A DNA stretch of 52,885 bases from a virus. Positions 2,930-52,885 of the stretch are shown here, piece after piece (positions within the stretch are counted from its first letter, which is position 1; every line of letters begins with the position of its first letter). Position numbers and translations under genes: made by a program. The notes beneath the pieces were generated by a model, which was given only the letters and a program-made list of their open reading frames with translations, was not told the origin of the DNA and made no database searches. Location of the stretch: positions 1-52,885 of the IMG/VR virus record IMGVR_UViG_3300016461_000001; one strand, given 5' to 3'.

Positions 2930-2931
2930 TC

Positions 2932-3516
2932 ATGAACTGGCAGAGCATCGCGGGTCAGCTCGCGCAGATCGGGCTTCCGGCCCTCGGTACCCTGTTCGGC
3001 GGTCCGCTTGGCGGCACCATCGGCGGCCTGGTCGGCAAAGGCGTGGCCGCGGCGCTGGGCGTCGAGCCGCCCCCGCAGGCCGTGTCTACCGCCATCTCTG
3101 CCGACCCGAACGCGGCCGCCGTGAAGCTGGCGCAGATCGAGGCCGAGACCAAGGCGAACGAAGCGCAGCTCGCCGACATCGCCAACGCCCGCGGCACCAC
3201 CGTGCAGCTCGCGACCGTCGGCTCGAACATCGCCTGGGGCGCCCCGGTGGTGTCCTGCATCATCTGCGTGGGGTTCTTCGCCGTCCTGACGATGCTCTTC
3301 TTCGTGCGGGTCGAGATGCCGTCGAGCGTGTTCCAGCTCCTGAGCGTCATCCTCGGCGTCCTCGCCAGCCTCATGACCCAGGTCGGGAACTACTGGCTCG
3401 GCTCCTCCGAAGGTTCGCGCCGCAACGCCGACACGATCCGGGACGTGGCCCGCAGCGCCGTCTCGCCGCCGCCCGGCGTCGTGGCGGCCACCGTCGCTCA
3501 GGCCATCAAGCGCTAG
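2932..3516 (+). CDS. Holin, GTA-type 3-TM holin-like
   Basis: Gly-rich N-terminus MNWQSIAGQLAQIGLPALGTLFGGPLGGTIGGLVGKG plus C-terminal TM segments. It lies directly after the endolysin. A TTG at 2926 overlapping the endolysin stop is an alternative start. Confidence 0.65.
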   Translation: MNWQSIAGQLAQIGLPALGTLFGGPLGGTIGGLVGKGVAAALGVEPPPQAVSTAISADPNAAAVKLAQIEAETKANEAQLADIANARGTTVQLATVGSNIAWGAPVVSCIICVGFFAVLTMLFFVRVEMPSSVFQLLSVILGVLASLMTQVGNYWLGSSEGSRRNADTIRDVARSAVSPPPGVVAATVAQAIKR

Positions 3517-3557
3517 GGCGCGTCCGTGAGCACCATCTCGATATTGCGTGAGAAGCG

Positions 3558-4031
3558 ATGGCTCCCGATGAACGACGGTACACCGCCGAGGAATGGCGGG
3601 AGATCCAGAACGAGTATCGGGAGCAGCCCCGGCGCGCGATGCGGTCCATGTTCCCGGATCCCGTCGAGGAATGCGAGCTAGGTCCGTTCGTGCCGGAACC
3701 GGCCTATGCGCACGCCCGGGGCCGGGGAGAGCCGGCGCCCCGGCACCACGCGCACGTTGAATCGTGGTTCTCGACGCTCAGCGTCGAGGACATCGCCAAG
3801 CTTGAGGTCCTGATCGCCCTCCGGCCGGAGACCGTGAAGTGGGTCGCCGAGAAGAACAGCCGCGAGCTTGAGCGCCTCGACGGGGCGGTCGAGTTCATCT
3901 CGTCCTCGCGTACCGCGGCGAAGGTCCTGATGTGGGTCTGCGGCGTCGCCGTGACCTTCGTCACCGGCTCAATCGCGCTGGCGAAGGCGGGCTACGACGC
4001 TTTCGCGCTCTTCCGGGGGATCGGCAAATGA
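3558..4031 (+). CDS. Hypothetical protein with C-terminal transmembrane anchor (lysis-cluster accessory)
   Basis: 157-aa track ORF. Hydrophobic C-terminus VLMWVCGVAVTFVTGSIALA. Its stop overlaps the next start (aaATGAtg). Confidence 0.55.
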   Translation: MAPDERRYTAEEWREIQNEYREQPRRAMRSMFPDPVEECELGPFVPEPAYAHARGRGEPAPRHHAHVESWFSTLSVEDIAKLEVLIALRPETVKWVAEKNSRELERLDGAVEFISSSRTAAKVLMWVCGVAVTFVTGSIALAKAGYDAFALFRGIGK

Positions 4032-4498
4032 TGGTGCGCGTTCTCGGCCTCACGTGCTTGAGCTTGATCAGCGCCTCGATCCTGTCCGCCGCCGGCTGCA
4101 TGGCGTGGTTCGCGGCGGACAGGGCCGTCCCGGTCGAGGTGCTGTCCTCGGAGGTCCTGACGCCTCGGGTTCGCCCGGGCGATAAGCTCGTGATTCGACA
4201 GCGCCTGCGGTACATCCGGAACTGCTCCGCGCACATCGACCGGGTGCTCTACGACAGCCACACCCATCGCGAGTTCCTGCGCGACGTGGATTACGAGTAC
4301 CCGCCACTGGGTCTCGGCACGCGCACCATCACCTTCGAGGAGGAGGTGCCGGCCAATTTCGGCCCCGGGCCGGGGGAGTACCGCGCGCTCCCCGCCTACC
4401 ACTGTAACCCGCTGCAGAAGTACTACTGGCCGATCACGCGGCCGGAGACGGTGCTCCGCTTCGACATCGCCGACGACACCCGGCAGGCCTCGCCATGA
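4028..4498 (+). CDS. Membrane-anchored/lipoprotein-like protein (156 aa)
   Basis: Internal start of track ORF 3932..4498: MMVRVLGLTCLSLISASILSAAGC..., a signal-like segment ending in Cys. Coupled to the upstream stop. Confidence 0.5.
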   Translation: MMVRVLGLTCLSLISASILSAAGCMAWFAADRAVPVEVLSSEVLTPRVRPGDKLVIRQRLRYIRNCSAHIDRVLYDSHTHREFLRDVDYEYPPLGLGTRTITFEEEVPANFGPGPGEYRALPAYHCNPLQKYYWPITRPETVLRFDIADDTRQASP

Positions 4499-4605
4499 CC
4501 TGCGCGCCCGTCGAGCAGGATCTCGGCATCGTCTATGCCCTGATCGCCCTCATGGTCGGCCTGATCGTCGGGAACGCCACGAAGAGGTGCCCGCCGAGCG
4601 AATGA
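4495..4605 (+). CDS. 36-aa single-TM mini-protein
   Basis: Hand-translated: MTCAPVEQDLGIVYALIALMVGLIVGNATKRCPPSE. ATGA overlap with the upstream stop. Below the ORF-track cutoff. Confidence 0.4.
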   Translation: MTCAPVEQDLGIVYALIALMVGLIVGNATKRCPPSE

Positions 4606-5066: not shown

Positions 5067-5822
5067 ATGGATCGTGCGGCGCAGTTGTTGGAAGGCATCG
5101 ACGTCGACGCCCTGGTCGGGCTCGAGGTCGGGCCGCTCGATAAGGCGCTGGTCAAGCGGACCGAGGGGCGACAGATCTTCTACGCGGACTACGCGGACAG
5201 GGCCGCGCTACGGGCGGCCTCGGAAACCGACCCGAACGTCAACATCGACGCGATCCCCGAGATCGATTACGTGATCGCGCCGCTGCCGGAGAGGCTGCCG
5301 CGGCAGTTCGATTACGTCATCGCGTCACACGTCGGCGAACACGTCCCGGATCTGCTGGGCTGGTTGAAGACCCTGTTCGGATGGCTCAAGCCCGGCGGCG
5401 TCGTGATCCTGGCGCTCCCGGACAAGCGCTACACCTTCGACTGCCTGCGCGAGCACAGCACCATAGGGGAGCTGCTCGAGGCGCACGTCGAGAAGCGGGA
5501 GCGGCCGTCCTTCGCCTCGATCTATGACGGGTTCAGCAAGGCGACGCGGAACGACGTGTGCGCCCTCTGGGAAGGCGCGGATCCCGCAAAGTTCGAATAC
5601 CAGTTCCCTCGCGACGTCTCGTTCAGGATGGCGCGCGACGCGCACATCAATGGGACATATCGGGACTGTCACTGCTGGGTGTTCACAGCTCACGGGTTCC
5701 GCGCGCTGCTGGATGAAGCCCGAGATCTCGGCGTGATCGATTTCGATTGGGTCCGAGCGACCGATCCAGAGACCTACACGGTCGAGTTCTATGTCACGAT
5801 AAGACCGCGCGCCGCTCACTGA
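5067..5822 (+). CDS. Class I SAM-dependent methyltransferase (moron)
   Basis: VIASHVGEHVPDLLGWLKTLFGWLKPGGVVILALPDKRYTFD resembles Methyltransf_11/23-type proteins. RBS GGAGGA lies 8 nt upstream. Confidence 0.7.
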   Translation: MDRAAQLLEGIDVDALVGLEVGPLDKALVKRTEGRQIFYADYADRAALRAASETDPNVNIDAIPEIDYVIAPLPERLPRQFDYVIASHVGEHVPDLLGWLKTLFGWLKPGGVVILALPDKRYTFDCLREHSTIGELLEAHVEKRERPSFASIYDGFSKATRNDVCALWEGADPAKFEYQFPRDVSFRMARDAHINGTYRDCHCWVFTAHGFRALLDEARDLGVIDFDWVRATDPETYTVEFYVTIRPRAAH

Positions 5823-6027
5823 TCAAGGCCGCGAGAGTTCTGAAGGCAACCTTGGTGCCAACTTCAACGGCGAGCACCTTTTCGGTCAGATACTTAGCGC
5901 GGGCTTGATCGCCTTCGGCAAGCGCCGTCCTGATGTCCCTCACGACGCCGGCGATGAAGTTGGTATCGGGCATCAAGGCGGCTCCGCTGTAGTCTATGCC
6001 AAGCGCCGCAGCGCTTGACCGAGCCAT
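5794..6027 (-). CDS. Hypothetical helical protein (77 aa); second gene of the wHTH module that the IS disrupted
   Basis: Track ORF. Its ATG at 6027 sits 3 nt after the reconstructed stop (6031-6033) of the IS-split upstream gene. It overlaps the methyltransferase 3' end convergently by 29 nt. Confidence 0.35.
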   Translation of the reverse strand: MARSSAAALGIDYSGAALMPDTNFIAGVVRDIRTALAEGDQARAKYLTEKVLAVEVGTKVAFRTLAALISERRAVLS

Positions 6028-6030
6028 AGC

Positions 6031-6123
6031 TCACCGGCAGGAGAGACGGCTAGTGGGCTTGCTCGCGTCGATCTCAGCGAGGTGCTGTCGCCCCGCAGCA
6101 GTGATGAACCACGCTGAAATTTT
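6031..6123 (-). pseudogene. Detached 3' fragment of a small winged-helix gene split by the IS insertion
   Basis: Removing 6124-8745 joins 8746-8910 in frame to 6123-6031, giving ...GRKISAWFITAAGRQHLAEIDASKPTSRLSCR*. Confidence 0.5.
6116..6123. repeat. Target-site duplication GAAATTTT (left copy)
   Basis: The 8-mer is identical to 8738-8745 and lies immediately outside both IS termini. Confidence 0.85.
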
Positions 6124-6134
6124 GGTTATCCGGA

Positions 6135-7517
6135 TTATCGCGTGGAGTCGGCGAAGCCATCAAGCCAGCCCTTGGTGTGGAATGTGTTGCACCGATTGCA
6201 GAGATCAATCTGCGCAATCGGTGTGTACTGGCGTCCCCCAGCAGGGCCGTAGAAGCCTCGCCCCCATCCGATAAGGTGCAACGGGTCCATCTCTGCGACG
6301 GGGAACTGCCCCAGGCATTCCTCGCATACTGCCAGTCGGAGCTTGCCGCGGGTCGGCAGCGTCAGCGCGCGAGCCCGGATCGCGTCGAAACGGTAGCCGC
6401 GCCCGGCTCGGTTGACGATCTTGATCAGCCCGTTGGCGGCCTCGGTGTAGGCGTTGGTGTAGGGGTGATCGAAGTACGCGAAGACCTGCTCCCGCCATGC
6501 GTCGATCGTCTTGGCGACGCCCTTGAACTCATCCACCTCGCTCGGGATGCTCGTCTTCCAGCGGTCAAACATGGTCTCGGCTTCGTGCCGAGACCGCCGC
6601 TGTTCACCGCCCCAGATGTCGTAGAACGCTTCCTTCGTGTGCCAAGCCGCCGACAGCAGATCGTTGTTCTTGAGCATGCCGTCGAGGACGAACGCGCGCT
6701 GCGGGCTGAGGGTCTTGCCATGCGCGTGCAGCAGGCGGCGAGCCCGCCACGGGTTGCGCCGATCCTTGCCTTTGGCGCCCCGCCGCTGCCGATTGCGGAT
6801 CACATCGAGTGCAGCGTTCGCTTTGCTCTGAACGTGCCATCGGTCGGAGATGATAACGGCATCCGGCAGAAGGGCTTGCACCGCCTCGCGGTACGGCCCC
6901 CACATGTCGATAGTGACGATCTTGATGCGACGGCGGTTCGTCAGGATGCTGAGCCAGCGGTCAACCGCTGGCCGGTTCATGCTGTCGATCAAGTCGAGGA
7001 TGCGCCGCTCGCCGACATCCGTGAAGATGGTTCGCTTGCGGCCGAGAAGGTGCAGTTCGTCGATGCCGAGCGCAACCGGTGCCGTAGGCTTGTGCCGGGC
7101 CAACAGGCTCTCAATCTCCTCGTTGCAGATGTCCCGGATGGTCTTCTCGTCCAGACCGATCTCACGGGCGAGGTGGGCGTAGGGCCGGATCAGACCCTGC
7201 TCGCGGATGTGATCGGCGCATCGCCGCGTCATCCGCCGCTGCGGGTCCATGTCGGGCAAGGGCTGCATGAACGTCGCGCTACAGTCTCGGCAGCGGTAGC
7301 GCTGGACATCGACCGCGACGATGGTCCGGAGTCCGTGTACAGGAGCATCCACGTAATCGATGGCCCGTGTCCCATGTCGATAGGGCTGCCGGGTGGAACC
7401 GCACTTCGGACAGTGGGTGGGCTCGACATCGTAGCGGGCCACCAGCCGGTAGCCCTCTTGCGACCGTTCCACCTTCTCCACGGTCCAGTCGTCCAGATAG
7501 AGTGCGTTGACGGCCAT
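6135..7517 (-). CDS. ISL3 family transposase
   Basis: N-terminal zinc finger CPKCGS..CRDC. DDE landmarks LGIDELHL, VTIDMWGPY, YTNAYTEAANGLIKIVNR. The stop codon lies inside the terminal repeat. Confidence 0.9.
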   Translation of the reverse strand: MAVNALYLDDWTVEKVERSQEGYRLVARYDVEPTHCPKCGSTRQPYRHGTRAIDYVDAPVHGLRTIVAVDVQRYRCRDCSATFMQPLPDMDPQRRMTRRCADHIREQGLIRPYAHLAREIGLDEKTIRDICNEEIESLLARHKPTAPVALGIDELHLLGRKRTIFTDVGERRILDLIDSMNRPAVDRWLSILTNRRRIKIVTIDMWGPYREAVQALLPDAVIISDRWHVQSKANAALDVIRNRQRRGAKGKDRRNPWRARRLLHAHGKTLSPQRAFVLDGMLKNNDLLSAAWHTKEAFYDIWGGEQRRSRHEAETMFDRWKTSIPSEVDEFKGVAKTIDAWREQVFAYFDHPYTNAYTEAANGLIKIVNRAGRGYRFDAIRARALTLPTRGKLRLAVCEECLGQFPVAEMDPLHLIGWGRGFYGPAGGRQYTPIAQIDLCNRCNTFHTKGWLDGFADSTR

Positions 7518-7648: not shown

Positions 7649-8068
7649 CTATATTAAAGCTGTCCCCGCCGAAGGATGCGTCCGAGGCACCCCATCGGCT
7701 TCGGCCGGTGGGACCTCGCTCCCTTCAGGTTTCTCCTCGGCACAAGCGAGCAACCTAATTGCATTCAGAGCTTCCGCATCTGTCATATCGCCACGATTGA
7801 CAATGTACTGGCTATGGATCTCGTGAAGCACGCCGCGCAGACGTTCGTTATCGTCTTCTGCGTCACGCCATAGAGCGTCTGTAATATTGCACAGACCTAT
7901 AGCATCAATTGCAATTCGGATCGCACAAACGCCGTCCGTTAGCCAGTTTGCTGCATCTGTATCGCCCTCTTCGATGCGGTTTGCGAGGGCGCCTTGAAGG
8001 TGAAGGCTAAGATTTCTCAGCTTTTGAATGATGGGATCGCCCGTCTTCTCGGTCGCATGAAAGCTCAT
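7649..8068 (-). CDS. IS passenger ORF P3, hypothetical helical protein (139 aa)
   Basis: Track ORF. Its ATG is 1 nt after the P2 stop (TGAgATG). Low-G+C codon usage unlike the phage backbone. Confidence 0.6.
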   Translation of the reverse strand: MSFHATEKTGDPIIQKLRNLSLHLQGALANRIEEGDTDAANWLTDGVCAIRIAIDAIGLCNITDALWRDAEDDNERLRGVLHEIHSQYIVNRGDMTDAEALNAIRLLACAEEKPEGSEVPPAEADGVPRTHPSAGTALI

Positions 8069-8737: not shown

Positions 8738-8910
8738 GAAATTTTACGGCCCGGGCCCCGCGCCGGCCGCGACACCACCAGCCCCAGCTTCCGCAGCGTC
8801 GGCATCGCCGACGGGTAGGCTTCGTGCCGCAGCCCCTGCGGGTAGAGCAGGCAGGCGCGGAGCGCGGCGAGCTGTCGGCCGCGGACGGGTGCGATCGGTT
8901 CGGACGGCAA
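8722..8910 (-). pseudogene. 5' part of a small winged-helix-like gene truncated by the IS (now ends ...GRKISAFRI* inside the IS end)
   Basis: LAALRACLLYPQGL...MPTLRKLGLVVSRPARGPGRKIS. The only start is a TTG at 8910. The reading frame runs into 8722-8745 (IS end plus duplication). Confidence 0.4.
8738..8745. repeat. Target-site duplication GAAATTTT (right copy)
   Basis: Identical to 6116-6123. Confidence 0.85.
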
Positions 8911-8920
8911 TTCCTCGGCC

Positions 8921-8941
8921 TGCTTACTATGTGCTTACCGG
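8921..8941 (+). repeat. Putative integrase arm-type site (left of core): TGCTTACTATGTGCTTACCGG
   Basis: 19/21 identical to 9152-9172. Further TGCTTACCG copies are at 9056-9065 and, inverted, at 8952-8960. Confidence 0.6.
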
Positions 8942-8977
8942 TCGTCAGTTTCGGTAAGCAAGCAGAGGGGTAAGTGT

Positions 8978-9022
8978 TGGTGCCGCAAGAGGGATTCGAA
9001 CCCCCGACCCCCTCATTACGAA
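8978..9022 (-). tRNA. Partial tRNA-Thr(CGU) 3' fragment (anticodon loop to CCA); probable attP core
   Basis: The reverse complement reads TTCGTAA-TGAGG-GGGTC-GGGGG-TTCGAAT-CCCTC-TTGCGGC-A-CCA. No matching 5' half: the anticodon-stem partner is absent upstream. Confidence 0.75.
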
Positions 9023-9151
9023 ACATGGGTTACCCAGCAAATTAGTTGACAGGACTGCTTACCGGCCTGCAGAAGCGTCGATCTGCGAGGGGTTTGTGTG
9101 CGCGTACCCTCTCATTAAGCGGACGAGACCGACCGCTCGGTTCGTCACCGC

Positions 9152-9172
9152 CGCTTACCATGTGCTTACCGG
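9152..9172 (+). repeat. Putative integrase arm-type site (right of core): CGCTTACCATGTGCTTACCGG
   Basis: Direct repeat of 8921-8941, ending 6 nt before the int ATG. Confidence 0.6.
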
Positions 9173-9178
9173 ACAGCG

Positions 9179-10444
9179 ATGCGCCTCACGAACCAGTCTG
9201 CCCTTGCCGTGCGGCTCCCCGCCGGGCGCGATCGGATCGTGGTGTTCGACGACGACCTCCCGGGCTTCGGGCTGAGCCTGAGCAAGGGCGGGTCCCGCAT
9301 GTGGGTTGTCCAGTACCGGAACGCACTCGGGCAATCGAAACGGGAATCGCTGGGCAAGGTCGGGCTGCTGTCTGCGTCCGATGCGCGCCGCGCTGCCGGC
9401 GAGCGGCTCGCCCGGGCCAAACTCGGCGAGGATCCGCACGCCGAGAAGGTGAAGGCGAAAGCCCGGGCGGCGGTCACGTTCGGCGCGGTGGTCGAGCCGT
9501 ATCTGGAGGCTGTTGGGCCCGGCCTGCGGCCAGCCTACCTCGCCGAGGCCGGCCGCTACCTGCGCACGACCTGGAAGCCGCTGCACAAGCTCCCGCTGCA
9601 CACCGTCGGGCGCCCCGAGATTACCGAGCACCTGACCAAGATCCGGAACGAGACTGGGCCGCACGCGGCAAATCGGGCTCGCGCCGCGCTGTCGGCGCAC
9701 TTCGCCTGGCTGGTCGGAACGGGCAAGGCCGAGACGAATCCGGTCATGGGTGTGCCGAAGCCCGCGCCCGAGGTGCGCCGCGCCCGGGTGCTGGCCGAGG
9801 ACGAGATCGCCCGGGTGCTGAAGGCCTGTCGCAACGACGACTTCGGACGGATCGTGCGCCTGCTGCTCCTCACCGGGCAACGCCGCGACGAGGTGGCCGA
9901 CATGGCTTGGACCGAGGTGGATCTGGCCGCGGGCCTGTGGTCGCTACCGGGCGAGCGCGTGAAGAATGGGCAGGACCACGACGTGCCGTTGTCGGCCCCT
10001 GCCCTGCAGATCCTCGCCGGAACAGAGCGCATCGAGGGACGACCGCTGGTGTTCGGCCAGGGCGACGGGGGGTTTCAGGGCTTCTCCCGGGCGAAGGCGA
10101 CGCTCGACAAACGCTCTGGCGTCACCGGATGGCGGCTGCACGATCTGCGCCGCACGGCTGCCACCGTCATGGGCGACCGCCTGAAGGTGCTCCCGCACGT
10201 GATCGAGGCCGTGCTGAACCACATCTCCGGCCACAAGGCGGGCGTGGCCGGCATCTACAACCGGGCGCTCTACGCCACGGAGAAGCGCGAGGCCCTAGAC
10301 GCGCTCGGCGCCTATCTCGCAGGCCTTAAGCCAAGCATCGAGATCGCCTCGGCGGATGCCGAGCCGGCGCTCGCTAAGCCGAAGAAGCGTCGGGCCGCGG
10401 CCGTCCTTGCACATCCGGCGAAGCGTCGCGGCGCTGAGTCCTAG
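9179..10444 (+). CDS. int: Tyrosine integrase (P4-like, N-terminal Arm/DUF4102-type domain)
   Basis: LPGFGLSLSKGGSRMWVVQYR at the N-terminus. Catalytic landmarks LLLLTGQRRDEV, HDLRRTAAT, VLNHISG, GIYNRALY. Adjacent to the tRNA fragment. Confidence 0.9.
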   Translation: MRLTNQSALAVRLPAGRDRIVVFDDDLPGFGLSLSKGGSRMWVVQYRNALGQSKRESLGKVGLLSASDARRAAGERLARAKLGEDPHAEKVKAKARAAVTFGAVVEPYLEAVGPGLRPAYLAEAGRYLRTTWKPLHKLPLHTVGRPEITEHLTKIRNETGPHAANRARAALSAHFAWLVGTGKAETNPVMGVPKPAPEVRRARVLAEDEIARVLKACRNDDFGRIVRLLLLTGQRRDEVADMAWTEVDLAAGLWSLPGERVKNGQDHDVPLSAPALQILAGTERIEGRPLVFGQGDGGFQGFSRAKATLDKRSGVTGWRLHDLRRTAATVMGDRLKVLPHVIEAVLNHISGHKAGVAGIYNRALYATEKREALDALGAYLAGLKPSIEIASADAEPALAKPKKRRAAAVLAHPAKRRGAES

Positions 10445-27340: not shown

Positions 27341-27496
27341 ATGAGCCCCGTCGCGATCATCCTGCTGATCCTGATCATCCTCGCCTTCGGCGGTGGCGGG
27401 TTCGGCTGGGGTGGCGCCTACCGCGGGCCCGGCTTCGGCATCGGGGGCGTGCTGATCATCGTCCTGGTGATCCTGCTGCTCACGGGGCGGCTGTGA
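27341..27496 (+). CDS. Small Gly-rich membrane protein (DUF3309-like, 51 aa)
   Basis: MSPVAIILLILIILAFGGGGFGWGGAYRGPGFGIGGVLIIVLVILLLTGRL. GGAG RBS. Confidence 0.55.
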   Translation: MSPVAIILLILIILAFGGGGFGWGGAYRGPGFGIGGVLIIVLVILLLTGRL

Positions 27497-27630
27497 GCGA
27501 CGAGGCTGAAGCCGCTCTGATCATGGCCGGATCCTTCGGGGCGTTTACGTTCATGCTCGGCTACCTGCTCGGGAAGGCGCGGGCCACCGCCCGGCAGCCG
27601 CTCACCGACCGGATGAGCTTCGAGGACTGA
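27493..27630 (+). CDS. 45-aa single-TM mini-protein
   Basis: Hand-translated: (V)SDEAEAALIMAGSFGAFTFMLGYLLGKARATARQPLTDRMSFED. GTGA overlap. Confidence 0.4.
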   Translation: MSDEAEAALIMAGSFGAFTFMLGYLLGKARATARQPLTDRMSFED

Positions 27631-27640
27631 GGCGCCACCC

Positions 27641-28177
27641 GTGGCCCTGACCCCCAAGCAGCAGCGTTTCGTCGAGGAGTACCTCGTCGATCTGAACGCG
27701 ACCCAGGCCGCGATCCGTGCCGGGTACAGCGAGCGCAGCGCCTACAGCGTCGGACACGAGAACCTGAGCAAACCTGAGATCGCCGCCGCCATCTCGGAAG
27801 GCCAGGCGAACCTCTCCGAAGTGGCCGAGGTGACGGCCGAGCGGGTGATGCGCGAGGTGGCCCTGATCGCCCTCGCCGACCCGCGCTCCGTCATGACCTG
27901 GGGGCCGAAGGGCGTGACGCTGATCGACAGCAAGGCGCTGACCCGGGATCAGGCCGCCATCGTCGCCGAGGTCGCCCAGACGAAGGACGGGATCCGGCTC
28001 AAGACGCACAGCAAGCTCGACGCGCTCGAGAAGCTGATCCGGCGCATGGGGCTGAACGCGCCCGAGAAGGTCGACGTGAACGTGAAGGTCGACGGCCTCG
28101 AGGACGCGGACGTGGCCCGGCGCCTCGCCTTCATGCTCGCCAGCGGCGCGGCCGCGCAGGCACCGACCAAGGACTGA
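27641..28177 (+). CDS. terS: Terminase small subunit
   Basis: ALTPKQQRFVEEYLVDLNATQAAIRAGYSERSAYSVGHENLSKPEI is the P27/Terminase_2 signature. Confidence 0.8.
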   Translation: MALTPKQQRFVEEYLVDLNATQAAIRAGYSERSAYSVGHENLSKPEIAAAISEGQANLSEVAEVTAERVMREVALIALADPRSVMTWGPKGVTLIDSKALTRDQAAIVAEVAQTKDGIRLKTHSKLDALEKLIRRMGLNAPEKVDVNVKVDGLEDADVARRLAFMLASGAAAQAPTKD

Positions 28178-28182
28178 TCCCC

Positions 28183-28923
28183 ATGCGCACCCGCTTCCGC
28201 ACGCTGCTCCTCGCCGGGGCGGCGTCTCTCGCCGTGTCCGCGGCCGCGTTCGCCCAGGTCACGACCAACGGTGCCGTATCGACCATCTCGCAGATCGTGC
28301 AGGTGGTCTGGAACGGCCAGAACATCAGCAGCTCGAACCCGCTGCCGGTGGCTGTTGCGTCGGGGGGCGGCGGGTCGGCCACGGCAGCCGGCACGAACGG
28401 GACCACGGCGCAGGCCGTCCAGGGCATCAACGGCGGCGTACCTCTGCCGATCCAGGGCGGCAACGCCACGGCGGTCAAGACGGACGGCTCCGCGACCACG
28501 CAGCCGATCAGCGCCGCCGCCCTGCCGCTGCCGGCCGGCGCGGCAACGTCGGCGAACCAGACGAGCGAGATCGCTCAGCTTACGGCCGCGAACCAGCGGT
28601 CAGCCCTCTTCGCCGACTTCACGAACCAGGCTGTCGCTTCAAGCGGGACGATCACGGGGCCTTGGCGCGATGCTGGCGCGAGCCCGTCGCCATACACCAA
28701 GTTCAATTATGCGTTCGTGTCCTCGCAGTCGGGAACGGCGGTTGTACAAGTTTCGAACGACGGCACCAATTCGCTGACCAATATCATGACGACCACGGCG
28801 CTGAGCCCAACGAATAACATCGTCGGCACTCTACCGCTGACTTACAGATATTATCGCGTCGTTCTGATCAACGGCACGACGGCGGCTAACGCTTCCGTCA
28901 ACACGGCCTTTGCCACGAACTGA
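28183..28923 (+). CDS. Signal-peptide protein (246 aa), fibre/adhesin-like Gly/Ser/Thr/Ala-rich
   Basis: [24 protein letters not shown]|QV Sec-type signal. Starts 5 nt after terS. Confidence 0.6.
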
Positions 28924-28932
28924 GGCCGCATC

Positions 28933-29427
28933 ATGCGCCGCCTATTCGGGATCGCCGCAGCCCTCGCCCTGGCGTCCGCCGGGGCCTCGGCGCAACTGCT
29001 GGTCAACGGCCAGACCCAGACCGTTCCGGCCGCCGTCCCGAACGCGGACTACCTGTCCACGGCCGGCGCCCGCATGTCGCCGCAGATCCCGTTCTACCGG
29101 ATCGGCGAGCCGTACCAGATCGCCTTCACGCCCACGAGCGGCAGCGTCGAGGTGCCCGTCACCCCGCCGCCCGGCGCGACCTCGTTCCGGTACAGCGTGA
29201 ACGCCCCCTGCTCGGTGCGCTTCCGAGGCAGGGTCGCGGGCGCGCCCTTCGTGCCCCTGACGGCGACAACGGGCTGGCTGTGGTTCCCAGCCACCCAGGA
29301 CATCTTCACGTCCCTACAGCCCATCTCCGTCGTGGCGATGGGCGTCGATGGGCCGTTCGCGAGCGTCCAGGCGGCCCAGAAGGCCTGCTCGGGCGTCGTC
29401 GAGCTTCAGTTCGGAACGGGCCAGTGA
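28933..29427 (+). CDS. Signal-peptide protein (164 aa)
   Basis: [20 protein letters not shown]|QL Sec-type signal. Confidence 0.6.
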
Positions 29428-30077
29428 TGCGCGCGGCATGGGCTCTCGCGCTGCTGCTCGCCGCGACGCCGGCTCTCGGGCGAGGCACCGCTTCGCCGTG
29501 GCCGGCGCTGGATGGTGTTCCGGGACCACAGGGAGCGAAGGGCGATGCAGGACCGGCCGGAGCTGCGGGCGCGAAGGGAGACCAAGGGGCGCCGGGCGAC
29601 ACCGGCCCCCAGGGACCGGCAGGACCCAGCGGACAGGCAGGCCAGAAAGGCGATCAGGGCCCTGCAGGAAGCCCGGGAGCCCAAGGACTGACGGGCCCGG
29701 CCGGTTCGCCCGGCCTCGTCTCCGTCGCCCCATCTACCCCGACCCGCGCCCTCGGCGCCGCGTTCCAGCCTAGCGCGACGAAGGCGACGTTCGTCTCCTA
29801 CTCGGTCAAGACGTCCGTCACGAACCCGCTCCTTGTCGGCACGTCTACCGCGACCGTGACCCTGCTCAGCGATGCCGCAACTACGCCGACCACGGAGCGC
29901 GGCCGCGTCGAGGCAACGTCCGGCGTGGGGGTCTCCGTCACCCTCGCGCTCACCACCAGCAACACCGCACAGCTCTCCTACGTCGTGCCGGCCGGCCATT
30001 GGGTTCGGCTCGTCTCCACGGTGAGCGGCACCGGCTCGGCTGCGATCGTCTCGCAGGTCGAGGAAACCCTGAACTGA
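29427..30077 (+). CDS. Collagen-like repeat protein with signal peptide and a beta-rich C-terminal domain (216 aa)
   Basis: [18 protein letters not shown] signal, 22 uninterrupted G-X-Y triplets, and TGATG coupling. The track ORF starts further upstream. Confidence 0.7.
29514..29711 (+). repeat. Collagen G-X-Y tract (22 triplets)
   Basis: [66 protein letters not shown]. Confidence 0.9.
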
Positions 30078-30089
30078 GGAGACACCACC

Positions 30090-30323
30090 ATGCGCTACAA
30101 GCTCACCCCCCTGCAGGAGCTGCCGGCGGCTCACGCCGCGTCCTACGCCGAAGTCGTCCACGAGGGCGACGAGGCCTCGCGCGATCAGCGCCTGAACGAC
30201 CTCCACGCCCTCACCGGCGTGCCGTTCGAGGCCGCCGAGTACAGCGACGACGACGCCCGCAAGGACGACGAGCGCGAGAACAAGGCGCTGAAGCGGCAGA
30301 GCCGCAAGGCCAGCGAGGACTAA
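30090..30323 (+). CDS. Small acidic protein (77 aa)
   Basis: Track ORF with a GGAGA RBS. Confidence 0.55.
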   Translation: MRYKLTPLQELPAAHAASYAEVVHEGDEASRDQRLNDLHALTGVPFEAAEYSDDDARKDDERENKALKRQSRKASED

Positions 30324-30338
30324 GGCTCACCCGCGGCC

Positions 30339-31925
30339 ATGGCCCTCCTTGATGAACGGATCGGGCGCATCACCGGCATGGCGCCGGACGCGCGCGCGCA
30401 GCTCGAGAAAGAGGTCATGGCCGCGACCGCGGGCCAGAACTGGTTCCCGAACCCGGGCCCTCAGACCGACGCCTACTTCAGCAAGGCTGACGTGCTGCTC
30501 TATGGCGGCCAGGGCGGCGGCGGTAAGACCGACCTCGGCCTGGGACTCGCGTTCACGGCGCACCGCCGCTCGCTGATCCTGCGCCGGAAGTACGCCAACC
30601 TCGGCTCGCTGACCGAGCGAGCGATCGAGATCCACGGCTCGCGCGACGGCTTCAACGGCTCACCCCCGCCGTCCCTCCGCGCCGGTGACCGCCTGATTCA
30701 GTTCGGCGGCAACCAGCATCTGGGCGACGAGCAGGACTGGCAGGGCCATCCCTTCGACCTGAAGGTGTTCGACGAGGCTGTGCAGTTCCTCGAGTTGATG
30801 GTCCGCTTCCATCTCGGCTGGCTGCGCACGACGACGCCCGGCCAGCGCACCCGCGCCCTGCTCTGCACGAACCCGCCGCTCGACGCCGACGGCGATTGGA
30901 TCATCGGCATGTTCCGGCCGTGGCTAGACCTGACCCATCATCGGCCCGCGAAGCCCGGAGAACTGCGCTGGTACGTCACCGCGCCCGACGGCTCGGACAT
31001 GGAGGTCGACGGGCCCGAGCCGATCCTGATCCCCGGAGCGGAGCGCCCGTCGATCCCGACCTCGCGCACGTTCATCCCGGCCGCTCTGCGCGACAACCCG
31101 TATCTGATGGCGACGCCGGCCTATCAGGCCCGCCTCGACGCCCTGCCCGAGCCGCTGCGCTCCGCCGTCCGCGACGGCAACTTCATGGCCGCCCGTGCCG
31201 ACGCTGACCGCCAGGTGATCCCGACTGCGTGGGTTCTCGCCGCTCAGGCGCGGTGGCGAGCGGACGGCTGGCGGGCCGAGCCCATGTCGGCGCTGGCTCT
31301 TGACCCGGCTGGCGGCGGCAGGGACGCCCGCACGCTCGCGTATCGGCACGGCGGCTGGTACGGCCCGCTGCACAGCGACACCGGTCCCGAGACCGCGGAC
31401 GGCTCCGCCTCTGCTGCGCTCATCGTGAAGGTGCGGCGCGACGGCGCCGGGGTCGTGGTCGACGTCGGCGGCGGCTACGGCGGCTCCGTCACGCTGCGGC
31501 TCGACGACAACCAGATCGAAAACGTCGGCTTCAACGCCTCCGCCGCCTCCACCGCCAAGACGCAGGACGGTAAGCTCGGGTTCGTGAACAAGCGGGCCGA
31601 GGCGTGGTGGAAGTTCCGCGAGGAACTCGACCCAGACCAGGAGGGCGGCTCCGCCGTCGCGCTGCCGGACGATCCCGAGATGCGGGCCGACCTCTGCGCC
31701 CCGACCTTCACCATGCGAGCCAACGGCATCCAGATCGAGAGCAAGGACGATCTGCGGAAGCGTCTCGGCCGCTCGACCGGCAAGGGCGACGCGGTGGTGA
31801 TGTGCATGTCCGAGGGGGCACGGGCGCAGGTGCAGGCCGTGGCGAAGCGTTCGAGCACCGCCCGCCCGACGGTGGCGAACATGGGCGCGCGGCATGCCGC
31901 CGTGCATGCGCGGAGGAGAGCGTGA
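30339..31925 (+). CDS. terL: Terminase large subunit
   Basis: Walker A: LLYGGQGGGGKTD. Walker B: LKVFDEAVQF. Nuclease-half length fits. Confidence 0.85.
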   Translation: MALLDERIGRITGMAPDARAQLEKEVMAATAGQNWFPNPGPQTDAYFSKADVLLYGGQGGGGKTDLGLGLAFTAHRRSLILRRKYANLGSLTERAIEIHGSRDGFNGSPPPSLRAGDRLIQFGGNQHLGDEQDWQGHPFDLKVFDEAVQFLELMVRFHLGWLRTTTPGQRTRALLCTNPPLDADGDWIIGMFRPWLDLTHHRPAKPGELRWYVTAPDGSDMEVDGPEPILIPGAERPSIPTSRTFIPAALRDNPYLMATPAYQARLDALPEPLRSAVRDGNFMAARADADRQVIPTAWVLAAQARWRADGWRAEPMSALALDPAGGGRDARTLAYRHGGWYGPLHSDTGPETADGSASAALIVKVRRDGAGVVVDVGGGYGGSVTLRLDDNQIENVGFNASAASTAKTQDGKLGFVNKRAEAWWKFREELDPDQEGGSAVALPDDPEMRADLCAPTFTMRANGIQIESKDDLRKRLGRSTGKGDAVVMCMSEGARAQVQAVAKRSSTARPTVANMGARHAAVHARRRA

Positions 31926-32821
31926 TGTCTTTCAGGTGGCGTAACCGCAACCGCTGGGGCGACAACGATCGCAACTGGGGTCCCTTCACCTATGCGCGCG
32001 ATACCGCTGGCTACCGTCCTCTGGCGATCGTGATGCAGTCGCGCGGCGACGATGACGACGAGAGCGGCGACTGCACGCTGCGCATCAGCGGCTTCGGTCA
32101 CACGCTCATCGCCACCGTTCCGCCGATCATCCGGCCGTGGCGGCGCTGGGTCGACCTGTCGGACCGCCAGTATTATGGGCCGGACGGCGCTCCGCTGCCG
32201 AAGCGCCCCGATGCCGGCTATTGGGACGTGCACGCGCGCCAGTATGGCTTCACGCTGAGCGGCGCCGGTGACGTTGGCGGGAGCAGCTTCCTGCAGGTGT
32301 TTTTCGGCCCGCAGACGCACGACAGCTCCACGACCAAGCGTTGGTCGAAATTCCTGCCGTGGACTGAGTGGCGGCACGTCCGCCGGAGCTTATACGGCCT
32401 GGACGGCGAGCACATCTGGACCGAGCCGCCAGCCGCCCGGCGGCTCGGCGATGGGAGCTATGAGGCGCTGAAGGCAGCCGAGGATGCCTGCCCTTCCCGG
32501 ACCTTCCCATTCCGCGACTTCGACGGGGAGCCGCTGACTGTCCAGACCCGGATCGAGGAGCGCGAATGGCGCTTCGGCTCCGGATGGTTCAGGTGGCTGT
32601 CCCTGTTCCGCAGGCCGATGATTCATCGCTCGCTGGATCTCCGGTTCTCCGGCGAGACTGGCAAGCGCAAGGGCTCGTGGAAGGGCGGCACGCTCGGGCA
32701 CGCGATCGAGATGCTGCCCGGTGAGCTGCACGAGTCCGCGTTCCGCCGATACTGCGCCGAGCACGGCATGACCTTCGGGCACGGTGAGCAGCCCGCTATC
32801 GCTGAGACAGCCCGCGCGTGA
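31925..32821 (+). CDS. Hypothetical Trp/Arg-rich protein (298 aa) between terL and portal
   Basis: MSFRWRNRNRWGDNDRNWGPFTY... TGATG coupling to terL. Confidence 0.55.
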   Translation: MSFRWRNRNRWGDNDRNWGPFTYARDTAGYRPLAIVMQSRGDDDDESGDCTLRISGFGHTLIATVPPIIRPWRRWVDLSDRQYYGPDGAPLPKRPDAGYWDVHARQYGFTLSGAGDVGGSSFLQVFFGPQTHDSSTTKRWSKFLPWTEWRHVRRSLYGLDGEHIWTEPPAARRLGDGSYEALKAAEDACPSRTFPFRDFDGEPLTVQTRIEEREWRFGSGWFRWLSLFRRPMIHRSLDLRFSGETGKRKGSWKGGTLGHAIEMLPGELHESAFRRYCAEHGMTFGHGEQPAIAETARA

Positions 32822-40909: not shown

Positions 40910-42067
40910 ATGAAGCGCGCTCTGATCATGAAACTCGCCGTGCTCGGGGCGATCTTGTTCGCCGGGCCTGCCGCCGCGCAGACCAGCGTGCGGTGCGCCG
41001 CGTTCAACACGTTCCCCTTGGCCTTGAACCTCGGGCAGCCGCCGCTCGGCGTCGGCGGAGAGACGAACCACTGCCTCTGGCAGAAGGTCTCGGACGCGGT
41101 GAACGCCTTGGAGTTGCGCACCCGGAATGGCGGTAGCCTGACCGGCATGTTCGGCCCCGGCACGATCACCCCGCAGGGCATCTACCAAGCCTCGTACCCG
41201 GGCGTGAATTTCCGCGACACCGTGCAGTCCATGCTCGACGTGGCACCCGGCTCCCCCCAGGAGAACCTCGGCGCGTTCGCCGCCTACATGCGCAATCGTA
41301 GCGGCGGCGCGGCCACGCCGGGCGCGGGCGGCAACGCGGTCGGCTTCTTCAGCACGGGCATCATCAGCGCGGATAATTCCGCGATGTGGGGCGTGAACAC
41401 GCTCATGACGGATAACGATCAGCGTGCCGTCGCTGCCGGCGGGGCCGGGCGCATCGCGGTTGGGGCGGAGCTCGACTTCAACGTCATGCGCCCCACGACG
41501 CAGCTTATCGGCGTCTCGATCGGCGGCAACAGCCTTGCGCAGCCGACGAACGCTAACGGCTTCTTGGTCAACACGCTCGGCAACGGCAACAAATGGGGGA
41601 CCGGCTTTTGGGTCCTCGATGGCGCCGCGAAGCAGGGCCTCGTGATCGGCGCGAGCGAGGTCGCCGGGTCGAGCAAGGTCGGCATTCCGATCTGGCTCCA
41701 AGCGTTCGACAGCACTGGCACGAAGCGCACCGCGCAGATCCGCCAGGAAGACAAATACATGGTCTTCAGCGACCTATCGCAGGGATCCTGGGGCGGCATC
41801 GTCGTGCGGCAGGGCGACCTCGCGCTCGACGCCGGGCATGGCGTCATCGTGAACGGGCAGTCCGTCCTCGGCGCTCGCGTGCCCGGCTGGACGGCCGGCA
41901 CCGGCACCCCGAACCTCGGGGCTTTCAACGCGGATTACACGCAGACGATCAGCGCGACCTACACGCAGTCGCAGGTGCAGGCGCTCCAGAACCAGTTGCA
42001 GCTCACGCAGCAGCGGGTTCTCGCACTCGAGACCGCGCTGCGCACCCACGGCCTCATTGGCCCCTGA
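40910..42067 (+). CDS. Signal-peptide-bearing fibre/spike-like protein (385 aa) with a C-terminal coiled coil
   Basis: MKRALIMKLAVLGAILFAGPAAA|QT. GGAGAAGG RBS. C-terminus QVQALQNQLQLTQQRVLALETALRTHGLIGP. Confidence 0.6.
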   Translation: MKRALIMKLAVLGAILFAGPAAAQTSVRCAAFNTFPLALNLGQPPLGVGGETNHCLWQKVSDAVNALELRTRNGGSLTGMFGPGTITPQGIYQASYPGVNFRDTVQSMLDVAPGSPQENLGAFAAYMRNRSGGAATPGAGGNAVGFFSTGIISADNSAMWGVNTLMTDNDQRAVAAGGAGRIAVGAELDFNVMRPTTQLIGVSIGGNSLAQPTNANGFLVNTLGNGNKWGTGFWVLDGAAKQGLVIGASEVAGSSKVGIPIWLQAFDSTGTKRTAQIRQEDKYMVFSDLSQGSWGGIVVRQGDLALDAGHGVIVNGQSVLGARVPGWTAGTGTPNLGAFNADYTQTISATYTQSQVQALQNQLQLTQQRVLALETALRTHGLIGP

Positions 42068-51000: not shown

Positions 51001-52885
51001 GCCATGCCCTGGAGAAGCGGATCGGCGAGCCGCTGTCCGACCTGATCGACCGGCACGCCGCGGAGCTTGGCCCGCTGGACTATGACCCGCAGCGCGGCGA
51101 CGCGGGCGAGGGCTTCGCCGAGTGGGTGCGCACGGCCATGTTCAACCCGGCGGCCGGGCAGCGGCAGGCGCCCGGGTTTGCGCAGGCCTTCCGGGCGCTG
51201 ATGCAGCGGGAGGCGCCGGATCTGCTGGAGCGCCTCGACCAGGCCGTGGCCGCCCATCAGGCCTACCTCGCCGCGCCGACGGGCGAGAAGCTCGCGACCA
51301 TGGTGCGCAAGCCCGAGGACGAGGGTGTGATTCAGTCCATTCGCCGGGACGGCCTACCGGCGACGGTCGGCCTGTACCTGTCCCGGGCCTACGAGGCGGT
51401 GTTCGACGACAAGGCGCCCGTGGCCCGGGCCGTCCGATCCATGACGCGGGCGATCTACGCCGCGACTGGCGAGCGGGTCCGGCTGGAGGGTGGCGAGAAC
51501 CCCGAGAACCTCGTGCGCCTGTTCGCCCGGGCCAACCAGGCGGCGGTGCAGGACATGCGCGAGGGCGTGCGGCCCTACCATGGCATCGCGCCGGAGGGCC
51601 CGTCGATGTCCGACGCGCTGGCGACCGCCACCGGTCAGCCCGGGATCCTCGGCCGCTGGGACGCCGGCAAGGTCGAGGAGTTCGACCGCTACCTCGTCGC
51701 CCGGCGCGCGGAGGTGCTCTACCGCCGCGTCGCCGACGGCACGCTGGAGCGACGGCCGATCGCGCTGTCGCCGGAGGAGGTGCGGACCGCGGTCGCCGAG
51801 GCCGAGGCCGCGAACCCGACCTTCCGGGCTGGGGCCGACCAGATCCACCAGTTCACCCGGCAGCTCCTGCGCAAGCAGTACGAGGGCGGGCTGATCGACG
51901 CCGACCTGTACGCGCGCCTGATGGACGAGGAGTTCTATGTGCCCCTGTACCGGCACATGGATGAGCGCCCCGAAGGTCTCGGCGGCGGATCCGGTGGCTC
52001 GGACGGGCCGGGCACGGTCGACACCATCAAGCGCCTGCGCGGCTCGGACCGCGACGTGATCCCGCCGACGCAGAGCCTGATGACCCAGGCCTTCCTCGTG
52101 AACCGGACGCTCCAGCACAACGACATCATCAAGAGCTTCGTCGCCCTGGCACGGGCGGCGCGCGAGGCCGGCGCCGCCGGCGTGGGCCGGATCCTGGAGG
52201 AGATCCCGCCGACGCAGATGCTCGGCAAGCGCTTCGATCTCGCGGAGGCGGTGCAGAGCGCGGCGCGCGCGGCGGGCACGTCCGGCGACGATCTCGCGGT
52301 GCTGAACGGAGCGATCACCGACGTGTTCGGCGAGGACCCGATCATGGCGACGATCTTCCGGGCCGAGCCCACGGGCAAGCGCGGCGAGCCGATCGTCTTC
52401 TACAAGGACGGCGGGCAGCTCCGCGCGGTTCGCCTCCAGGCCCGAGACGAGGGGCTCGCCCTCTACGAGACCCTGTCCGCGCTGCCGCCGATGGCCCGGG
52501 ACTTCGCGCTGAAGTTCGGCGCCACGACGTCGAGCCTGCTGCGGACCGGCATCGTCACGAACCCCACCTTCGCGATCACGAACTTCTTCCGCGATCAGCT
52601 CGCGGTCGGCGTGCTCCGGTCCGACTATGTGCCCTTCGTTTCCGGCGCAAAGGGCATCCGGAGCGAATGGAATCAGGATCAGTGGGCGCAACGCTACGCC
52701 TACGGCGGCGGTGTCTCGCCCGGCGCTGGCTCGGCTGGTCTGTCGGAGTTGATCGACCGCGACGTAAACGCCTTGGCCCGGCGCGGCTGGAAGGCGCAGA
52801 AGCTCGGCGGCATCGGCGACCTCGCACACGGACATCTCCTCGGTCCGTTGAAAGCCGGCGCCGAGACCATCGAGACGGCCGAAGC
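48045..52885 (+). CDS. Giant virion-internal/ejection (polyvalent-like) protein, N-terminal part; no stop before the window end, continues at base 2 (2179 aa in total once the overlap is collapsed)
   Basis: ATG at 48045, 14 nt after the SLT gene. I translated the frame by hand to 52885 with no stop. The track lists no plus-strand ORF in this frame, as expected for an ORF that runs off the end. Confidence 0.8.
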   Translation, partial: MADSAAPASLQDDGPNPFADRLAADPSLGEVSLAERARLNAVEAAYRGTIAGSADLAEFKRALPDQYERITKDLARYETMRGFDGPLEGAVALAGQLGGGMTSPEALITRVPGVNSLVERRVGGVAGRVLGAAGAQAAVQGAANPAIQASEIQSGLRKNYSLGENLAAAAGGAVLGGALHGAGEAVGALARSGRAAKVDTDALARARIAEQQAAESRNMAALAAEDPALRPGGEQGDIGQPISEPAARPDAGRTEAGIPVTEQDQALSPRADLQKAPSNMQADMQAAPEAPAMDAPAVAADPEAAAARAAADVPREEPAAPAMEQRPAVMDESAVPAETPAAPEEGYRLQISPFEKSTETRKNFDIVKDGESIGTAVVDVKGKEAYFDNIYLHGLDFGVDPVGTIGLREVRKMARQFLAEHPEIESITGNRVSGARKTIRGGAETQITVRRPKPQEAPTPEAAGAQPNPEATTPATLAAAVNTSSSGKPLSLSQFIARNGGLALDGEARARDLNRVFVPGGGPLARAKGHSIDGFWREAMIEHGYLPPDADGMAARNIEKELFDALDREQRGQRQYSAQDRAPETGGADNQTREIEAQARKITAAAKKVGIRPGDVDQRTMMDAAEMLWRGDADDPLVALEHAMMSGEAPRGRQMEQSVDGLQFMKRPQPSMLARLAAALDKEAALRPERDRLGGLLRDARAERDPIADLEAALARNLDRPATAEQSPEALLADIEARIADAKAEAVTPAQDDAITALERALSENLKADAPTRGDPAAALERALAEVPAPSRAVERPTALEARVLRAIEATPDGKGLGKDIWDVRERLPGMSEPDFVRAMHGLQAKRLTNLSQYSDPRSVRGQQGIDVGAGDRHIVSVQPEGRAALSGRDDLRFRNREPAAAGGEPGRPAPPDAVAGAAAPADTPAAEPLRSLQQQAQDLADALDVPLRSGRVKGGKDALGQFRNSDEVMRVRNVADFETVAHAAGHALEKRIGEPLSDLIDRHAAELGPLDYDPQRGDAGEGFAEWVRTAMFNPAAGQRQAPGFAQAFRALMQREAPDLLERLDQAVAAHQAYLAAPTGEKLATMVRKPEDEGVIQSIRRDGLPATVGLYLSRAYEAVFDDKAPVARAVRSMTRAIYAATGERVRLEGGENPENLVRLFARANQAAVQDMREGVRPYHGIAPEGPSMSDALATATGQPGILGRWDAGKVEEFDRYLVARRAEVLYRRVADGTLERRPIALSPEEVRTAVAEAEAANPTFRAGADQIHQFTRQLLRKQYEGGLIDADLYARLMDEEFYVPLYRHMDERPEGLGGGSGGSDGPGTVDTIKRLRGSDRDVIPPTQSLMTQAFLVNRTLQHNDIIKSFVALARAAREAGAAGVGRILEEIPPTQMLGKRFDLAEAVQSAARAAGTSGDDLAVLNGAITDVFGEDPIMATIFRAEPTGKRGEPIVFYKDGGQLRAVRLQARDEGLALYETLSALPPMARDFALKFGATTSSLLRTGIVTNPTFAITNFFRDQLAVGVLRSDYVPFVSGAKGIRSEWNQDQWAQRYAYGGGVSPGAGSAGLSELIDRDVNALARRGWKAQKLGGIGDLAHGHLLGPLKAGAETIETAE
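52763..52885. repeat. Terminal overlap copy B, identical to 1-123
   Basis: Same as copy A. Confidence 0.95.

Follow-up and report, generated by a model that had tools for sequence, protein, structure and literature searches.

The IMG/VR virus record IMGVR_UViG_3300016461_000001 comprises 52,885 nucleotides (nt), and this whole stretch of DNA is referred to below as the window. In it, the genes for the small and the large terminase subunits, terS and terL, are separated by four genes, designated A, B, C and D. The first three begin with segments that resemble signal peptides, and they form the cassette described here. The genes of the locus are listed below, with protein lengths in amino acids (aa).

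27641-28177, plus strand: terS, small terminase subunit and upstream boundary of the cassette (PF03592, E 2.5e-37; phrog_51)
28183-28923, plus strand: gene A, 246 aa
28933-29427, plus strand: gene B, 164 aa
29427-30077, plus strand: gene C, 216 aa
30090-30323, plus strand: gene D, 77 aa, acidic, without a signal peptide
30339-31925, plus strand: terL, large terminase subunit and downstream boundary of the cassette (phrog_979, E 1e-23; phrog_2; relatives found by tblastn)

All genes are located on one strand in the order terS-A-B-C-D-terL, with successive gaps of 5, 9, -1, 12 and 15 nt. The original prediction, which was made from the letters of the sequence, had placed four tightly packed open reading frames (ORFs) between the end of terS at 28177 and the start of terL at 30339, and these coordinates and the gene order were found to be correct. 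For C, the ORF start was listed at 29280, an upstream GTG codon that is not used by an independent gene caller; translation truly begins with the ATG at 29427, which shares 1 nt with the stop codon of B and on which the gene caller agrees. The tight spacing implies that A, B and C would be co-translated or translationally coupled with the terminase genes, and hence expressed late. A scan of positions 27600-30340 with the E. coli sigma-70 consensus, which is ill suited to an alphaproteobacterial host, identified no promoter or terminator consensus. Since 10 contigs, which come from at least 7 samples, encode an identical B protein, the locus is not an assembly artefact.

Probable export signals of A, B and C

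The 45 candidate genes of the window were scanned with a rule for signal peptides, consisting of a positive n-region, an uncharged hydrophobic core of about 8-15 residues and small residues at positions -3 and -1. Only four genes passed, namely A, B, C and a tail-module gene at 40910-42067; three of the four are adjacent, and the clustering is thus far from chance. The textbook Sec signals that had been noted at the N-termini of A, B and C were in this way all picked out of the 45 genes. In A, the signal spans aa 1-24, with the n-region MRTRFR, a 15-residue core and predicted cleavage between AFA and Q. The signal of B (aa 1-20) has the n-region MRR, a 14-residue core and a predicted cleavage site between ASA and Q, and that of C (aa 1-18; 29427-29480) has the n-region MR, a 13-residue core and a predicted site between ALG and R.

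All homologues of A start with signal-like N-termini. The same was found for 19 of 21 close relatives of B, in which the sequences diverge while the layout of n-, h- and c-regions is the same, and for the C-type proteins of the relatives L008, L009, L019, L021 and L024. The n/h/c architecture is therefore kept despite divergent sequence in homologues from at least five phage contexts. In L021, the A-type protein (6489-7256) carries the lipobox LAYGC (LALAYGC) instead of a signal peptidase I site. A twin-arginine translocation (Tat) signal, which would have a long n-region and a conserved S/T-R-R-x-F-L-K motif, was considered for B and rejected, because the twin arginine is not conserved in the family (MRWL, MRAL, MRII, MLRT and others); A and C have no RR. 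Taken together, A, B and C are very probably exported by the Sec pathway.

As a separate observation, the predicted mature N-termini of A (QVTTNG, from 28255 onward), of B (QLLVNG, from 28993 onward) and of a 162-aa protein of L017 termed B2 (QLFLNG; 8804-9292) have the pattern Q-x-x-x-N-G in common. These three predicted exported proteins are otherwise unrelated, and the pattern may act in sorting, as a donor strand or as a site of pyroglutamate formation.

The B family and its cysteine pair

B contains a jelly-roll-like core (aa ~50-164) with two conserved cysteines, Cys93 (29209-29211) and Cys152 (29386-29388). Its AlphaFold2 model has a predicted local distance difference test score (pLDDT) of 77. 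Foldseek identified no significant match of this model in the PDB (weak cupin and Ena-pilin matches with E of at least 0.03), and a profile search of the PDB with B returned nothing. The fold does match many uncharacterised tailed-phage proteins of ~100-115 aa in BFVD (E ~1e-4). The core was also identified as the N-terminal domain of the fusion proteins P0254, P0262 and P0269, the shafts of which consist of A-type repeats.

A HMMER scan of 1.84 billion representative proteins with the B family gave 50 hits, of which 49 were used and one, a multi-domain protein of 1,865 aa, was dropped. Twelve of the 49 clusters are signal-bearing; the other 37 are signal-less and core-only, mostly ~110-125 aa long, some with a C-terminal fibre-repeat extension. 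By motif count and manual reading, a cysteine pair at the sites homologous to Cys93 and Cys152 is present in 10 of the 12 signal-bearing clusters, but in only 1 of the 37 signal-less ones, most of which have phenylalanine at the first site. When counted by regular expression, the ratios are 9/12 versus 1/37 (Fisher p 1e-6, for clusters that are not phylogenetically independent). By inspection, the signal-bearing clusters form at least three sequence groups. Other signal-bearing proteins of the cassette also have even numbers of cysteines. The pair that goes with the signal is a predicted disulfide, as export to an oxidising periplasm predicts, and its appearance together with the signal peptide supports the export of B.

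Since scans with the B family identified only 5 loci in IMG/VR and 3 in JGI metagenomes, the signal-bearing family appears to be rare; it also appears to be centred on Methylobacterium.

Fibre-derived domains of A and C

The mature part of A consists to 65% of G, S, T, N, A and Q, which agrees with its earlier description as a Gly/Ser/Thr/Asn-rich, fibre-like protein. After the signal follows a low-complexity fibre-like region, with LPLPxGAATxANQ among other motifs. In the AlphaFold2 model, this N-terminal part has a pLDDT below 50, and the C-terminal part (aa ~140-246) forms a beta-sandwich at a pLDDT of ~90. The best fold match of the sandwich in the PDB by Foldseek is XepA (6i56), with E 2e-5, a root-mean-square deviation of 3.2-3.5 over ~110 columns and 14% identity. 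In a profile search of the PDB, residues 148-242 of A were aligned to residues 44-128 of XepA, its N-terminal domain, at a marginal E of 0.003. The repeat motifs of A recur in a signal-less fibre gene of 317 aa (P0064), which is located just upstream of the holin gene of another phage.

C contains an uninterrupted stretch of GXY triplets, as predicted for a collagen-like protein, though their number is 23 (aa 30-98; 29514-29720) and not 22. It scores 59.1 bits against PF01391 (Collagen; cutoff 27.2) and matches PHROG tail-fibre families. The stalk is followed by a head domain of ~118 aa (29721-30074), which by alignment is 60-90% conserved among relatives and had no match when the PDB was searched with its profile (best E 0.52). 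This head domain also caps a signal-less protein of 207 aa, whose gene closes the tail module of Xanthomonas phage XAJ2, and signal-less collagen fibres in the tail gene clusters of P22-like phages. Among 100 relatives that carry the head domain, ~15 have a signal and 85 do not. The length of the collagen stretch in relatives of C ranges from 0 to ~65 triplets, and mature C has only ~10 residues before the stalk. In L029 and L033, a signal-less B-like gene lies directly upstream of a signal-less C-like gene.

The families of A, B and C are without annotation in Pfam, PHROGs, NCBIfam and PADLOC: A and B had no match in these collections, C matched by its collagen repeats only, and PADLOC gave no match for any of A to D. 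A tblastn search with A and B against 50,697 cultured phages also returned no match. A triplication of one gene was considered for A, B and C and rejected, since hhalign identified no relation beyond the signal peptides. By these comparisons, A, B and C are three unrelated folds, all descended from parts of virion fibres, namely an anchor domain, a shaft, and a stalk with its tip.

Mobility and variability of the cassette

A comparison with related phages, as had been proposed, located the cassette at several sites in at least four phage architectures, each time among packaging or head genes. It lies between terS and terL in phages with T7-like heads (the window, L008 and L017), between portal and scaffold in the SU10-portal prophage L009, which also has a fourth signal-bearing gene, and between terL and portal in the P22-portal phage L021 and in L024, which is of another phage type. 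In the Mu_F-type prophage L019, B and C follow the capsid gene. In L017, A is accompanied by the unrelated signal-bearing 162-aa protein, and B and C are missing. In L003, terS lies ~250 nt from terL, with almost nothing in between.

The closest comparison is that with L008, for which the identities to the window are as follows.

capsid: 98%
portal: 92%
head domain of C: 92%
terS: 87%
B: 74%
terL: 52%
A: 38%

A is hypervariable by this comparison. On the DNA level, homology to L008 extends over 27638-28271 at 88% and breaks just past the codons for the signal peptide of A, so that the 3' end of terS together with these codons probably serves as a conserved recombination flank. The GC content at third codon positions is 0.83 for A and 0.78 for C, compared with 0.90-0.95 for the neighbouring genes. 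The varied contexts, the absence from relatives, the divergence of A, the homology break and the low third-position GC content all indicate that the cassette is accessory, modular and recombinogenic.

Further observations were made on the flanks. terL (30339-31925 in the window, 9364-10923 in L008) is only 52% identical, while portal and capsid are 92% and 98% identical, which suggests that terL was exchanged together with the cassette region. In L017, a transposase of the ISL3 family (5463-6845) is located upstream of the cassette, and A is preceded only by an ORF of 93 aa (7714-7995). The last 22 residues of this ORF match the C-terminus of terS, and terS seems to be replaced or truncated in that prophage. 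In L024, a signal-bearing protein of 454 aa with five cysteines (3142-4506) is encoded between terS and terL, and an A-B-C2 cassette between terL and portal. By eye, the 454-aa protein looks like a right-handed beta-helix of the kind found in pectate lyases and tailspikes, and it may be an exported depolymerase.

The position between the terminase genes had been called unusual, which holds in part. The terL relatives L001 (69% identity) and L002 (65%) also have fibre- or tail-like genes upstream of terL, though without signals, and terS is located 5' of this cargo only in L001. The slot upstream of terL thus appears to be a cargo site in this clade.

D would not be part of the cassette. A D-like gene directly precedes terL both in phages with B and C and in those without them; it is 84% identical in L008 and was also identified in L017, which lacks B and C. 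Because of this conservation beside terL, D probably belongs to the packaging genes. It had no matches in Pfam, PHROGs, NCBIfam or PADLOC.

The phage genome and its other genes

The window is a complete, circularly permuted phage genome. An exact terminal direct repeat of 123 bp (1-123 and 52763-52885) closes it to a circle of 52,762 bp, and a large ORF that leaves the 3' end (from 48045) probably continues in ORF 11-1822 across the closed circle. The GC content is ~69%, and the head genes are T7-like (portal PF12236, capsid PF19821). Three further features are listed below.

2027-4498: lysis region, with an endolysin gene (2027-2929; phrog_181) followed by membrane proteins, separate from the cassette between terS and terL
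9179-10444: integrase-like gene, the basis for regarding the phage as temperate
40910-42067, plus strand: fibre-type gene with a signal, 385 aa, between two tail-protein genes

The integrase-like gene, together with prophage copies in Methylobacterium genomes, indicates a temperate phage. Its host probably belongs to the Methylobacterium/Methylorubrum group, since homologues of the studied genes were identified in those genomes. In the lysis region (2027-4498), a recognisable pair of i-spanin and o-spanin was not identified; its last gene (4028-4498, plus strand) starts with MMVRVLGLTCLSLISASILSAAGC, which may act as the signal of a lipoprotein or anchor the protein at its N-terminus. A tail protein of 830 aa, which has a gp11-like N-terminus and a novel extension of 630 aa without relatives among cultured phages, carries no signal and is a candidate receptor-binding protein.

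The protein encoded at 40910-42067 was identified by the rule scan as having the signal peptide MKRALIMKLAVLGAILFAGPAAA, with cleavage before Q, and it contains two cysteines near the mature N-terminus. It matches the tail needle family phrog_1219 (E 6e-26), and over the C-terminal ~80-100 aa it shares 50-59% identity with the gp26 needle tip of P22 and HK620. A scan of IMG/VR viral contigs identified no close relatives. This gene may belong to the same phenomenon as A, B and C.

Immediately 5' of terS, two small membrane proteins of 51 aa (27341-27496) and 45 aa (27493-27630) are encoded on the plus strand, the first of which is weakly DUF3309-like. Their placement recalls that of the T7 holin gene 17.5, which precedes gene 18. 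The gene directly after terL (31925-32821, plus strand) matches PF25187, 'CBASS inhibitor Acb3' (E 3e-78, 263 bits compared with a cutoff of 27), and also phrog_7203; it looks like an anti-defence gene inside the packaging operon.

A proposed module of exported fibre-derived proteins

The best explanation for the cassette is that of a mobile module of Sec-exported, fibre-derived binding proteins, which would be made together with the late gene products and act outside the cytoplasm; as a whole, this statement is about evenly balanced between being right and wrong. The earlier suggestion of a secreted or periplasmic module that is co-expressed with late genes thus fits best, in view of the conservation of the signals, the lipobox relative, the cysteine covariation and the gene spacing. 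The cassette, located inside the packaging operon and coupled to terS, D and terL, would be translated at the time when virions are made. Each product would pass through SecYEG, and its signal would be cut at an AxA or AxG site. In the periplasm, B would fold with one disulfide. C would trimerise through its collagen stalk, presenting three copies of a tail-fibre-tip domain, and A would present its XepA-like beta-sandwich on a flexible fibre-repeat region. The least certain step is the last one, in which the products would act outside the cytoplasm as fibres that bind a ligand of the envelope or cell surface, and not as virion parts assembled in the cytoplasm.

The ligand and the benefit to the phage are matters of speculation. 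The likeliest role would be at egress, either in covering receptors or glycans and thereby sparing progeny from loss on debris, or in helping release like XepA. There is room for such a role because the phage has its own lysis genes and the signal-less receptor-binding candidate of 830 aa.

Several points weigh against this explanation. The signal-less relatives of B and C are located in structural modules, where a virion role is natural, and the signal-bearing forms may likewise belong to virions. A signal-less B stands next to a signal-bearing C in L019 and L021, an awkward combination if both must meet in the periplasm. Sec would reach only the periplasm of a diderm host, and since no route across the outer membrane is evident, a role in binding surface ligands would have to await lysis. 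No promoter of the cassette's own was found in the sigma-70 scan, a weak test for an alphaproteobacterium, and expression in the lysogen, as in classical exclusion, is unsupported. The similarity to XepA concerns one domain at 14% identity, and the predicted export of A, B and C is based on sequence comparison.

Alternative explanations

The alternative that survives best is that of virion fibres matured in the periplasm. The proteins would be exported, cleaved and oxidised, and would dock on finished particles when the compartments are mixed by holin and lysis, with B as an adaptor and C or A as the fibre. This is consistent with the derivation of A, B and C from fibre parts, and with the occurrence of the B core as the N-terminal domain, usually the virion-anchoring position, of fusions with A-type shafts. 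The pair of B followed by C also persists without signals in head and tail modules, the cassette is found among packaging or head genes every time, and the mixture of a signal-less B with a signal-bearing C in L019 and L021 would be sensible if the partners met at lysis. In addition, the signal-bearing protein at 40910-42067, which ends in a gp26-type needle tip, is encoded between tail genes. Against these points stand the short time window and the dilution at lysis, both unfavourable to docking, the dispensability and variability of the cassette among close relatives, and the lack of an obvious docking domain in the ~10 residues before the stalk of mature C. Literature searches also found no precedent for a tailed phage that routes virion parts through Sec, and to our knowledge there is none. 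This explanation is considered unlikely, though it deserves to be kept in mind. In its extended form, A, B, C and the protein at 40910-42067 would all undergo cleavage and disulfide formation in the periplasm and would be added to virions only once holin and lysis mix the compartments, which would amount to a two-compartment assembly; this, too, is judged to be improbable.

Lysogenic conversion or superinfection exclusion by the prophage is decidedly unlikely. In this case, the tails of incoming phages would be caught by virion-binding domains in the periplasm, or the host would profit from adhesive fibres. The phage is temperate by its integrase-like gene and the prophage copies in Methylobacterium, the hypervariability of A resembles that of arms-race genes, and the lipoprotein variant in L021 recalls Llp, Cor and Ltp. 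However, gaps of 5-12 nt are too short to hold a promoter, neither a promoter nor a terminator consensus was found, PADLOC gave no match, and the cassette lies within late genes in every context seen.

The second reading offered in the original prediction was that the hydrophobic N-termini are not true signals, so that A, B and C would not be exported and would be head or tail fibres of the ordinary kind, made in the cytoplasm, with the N-termini as uncleaved elements for assembly or trimerisation. The homology to fibre proteins and the placement among structural genes agree with this, and N-termini rich in Ala and Leu could easily arise at 69% GC. Such N-termini are nevertheless found in only 4 of the 45 genes of this genome, and their sequences drift within the n/h/c pattern, with small residues retained at -3 and -1. 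Furthermore, a lipobox variant exists, the cysteine pair tracks the signal across the B family, and the signal-less relatives simply do not have the segment, rather than conserving it. This reading is disfavoured above all by the signal conservation, the lipobox relative and the cysteine covariation, and is very unlikely.

Least probable of all, and only just conceivable, is a strict role in lysis or egress, as a spanin-like or XepA-like envelope disruptor in the slot of T7 Rz/Rz1 whose collagen stalk of ~20 nm would span the periplasm: the position between terS and terL and the two small membrane proteins (27341-27630) echo the T7 order 17.5-18-18.5-19, the domain of A resembles XepA and no textbook spanin pair was recognised in 2027-4498, but A, B and C of the window have no lipobox and would retain no membrane anchor after the predicted cleavage, the models of A and B are beta-rich or of low confidence with no coiled coil seen, 0 to ~65 collagen triplets among relatives are incompatible with a fixed span, close relatives lack the cassette and signal-less versions exist. 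A role as spanins in particular was rejected on the missing lipobox cysteine, the predicted cleavable signals, the A and B models without a coiled coil and the variable stalk.

Significance

It is assumed that the fibres of tailed phages reach their folded and assembled state in the cytoplasm. The present comparison suggests that fibre modules (anchor, shaft repeats, collagen stalk and tip) have repeatedly gained predicted export signals and a stabilising cysteine pair, and that they are passed on together, as a cassette, among unrelated phage architectures. Literature searches on exported phage fibres, on collagen proteins of Methylobacterium phages and on exported fibre cassettes in packaging operons found no precedent. 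If A, B and C are free exported proteins, they would represent uncharacterised late phage-encoded binders of the envelope or of glycans in abundant plant-associated bacteria, where they might mask receptors or aid egress. If they are located on particles, they would represent a periplasmic branch of virion assembly, which is undescribed for Caudoviricetes. In either case, nature has provided a clean experiment on the adaptation of a cytoplasmic fold to the periplasm, in the form of the covariation of signal and cysteines within the B family.

Comparison with known systems

Phage-encoded exported accessory proteins are a known kind, of which the cassette appears to be a variant. In T7, the envelope proteins Rz/Rz1 (genes 18.5 and 18.7) are encoded between genes 18 and 19. 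The arrangement is alike in that envelope-targeted proteins are encoded between terminase genes, in a podovirus with a related head module. In contrast to Rz/Rz1, A, B and C have no lipobox or retained anchor and are variable in length, and for A and B no coiled coil is predicted.

The morons Bor and Lom of lambda, Llp of T5, Cor of phi80 and HK022 and Ltp of TP-J34 code for envelope-targeted proteins that are not part of the virion, several of which block receptors or DNA entry. Each is a single small gene, as a rule expressed in the lysogen from a promoter of its own. The A-type protein of L021 is likewise a predicted lipoprotein. In contrast to the morons, with which no sequence relation was detectable, the cassette consists of three fibre-derived genes that are coupled inside the packaging operon.

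XepA (XkdY/P31) of the Bacillus subtilis element PBSX is a late protein that is exported past the cytoplasmic membrane and absent from particles, and a role in release was proposed for it (PMC6834076). Like the cassette, it is encoded in a phage late operon as a late exported protein, and the sandwich of A has it as its best fold match (E 2e-5), together with the marginal profile match. It differs in being a two-domain pentameric dumbbell without fibre repeats, whereas the model of A has a single folded domain (aa ~140-246) after a fibre-like region. XepA moreover originates from a monoderm and is located in a lysis cassette, and the identity to A is ~14% over one domain. It has reportedly also been grouped with non-classically secreted proteins.

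BclA of Bacillus, Lcl of Legionella and Scl1/Scl2 of streptococci resemble C in having a signal or targeting sequence, a GXY stalk of variable length and a C-terminal globular head; Lcl is a Gram-negative example of a collagen-stalk surface protein. The comparison with BclA-type filaments, which had been drawn before, holds for the architecture only, since the head of C is homologous to phage fibre tips. The NCBIfam models of Lcl, SclA and SclB score 40-55 bits against C, compared with cutoffs of 325-500, and match the GXY repeats only. C also has no LPXTG or known anchoring motif and is encoded by a phage among its late genes.

The collagen-like tail fibres of XAJ2 and the P22-like phages differ from C in that they have no signal, carry an N-terminal attachment domain or peptide and are encoded in tail modules, whereas C has a signal and no attachment domain and is encoded between the terminase genes. 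With these fibres, C shares both the GXY stalk and the same head domain, and this likeness is one of true homology.

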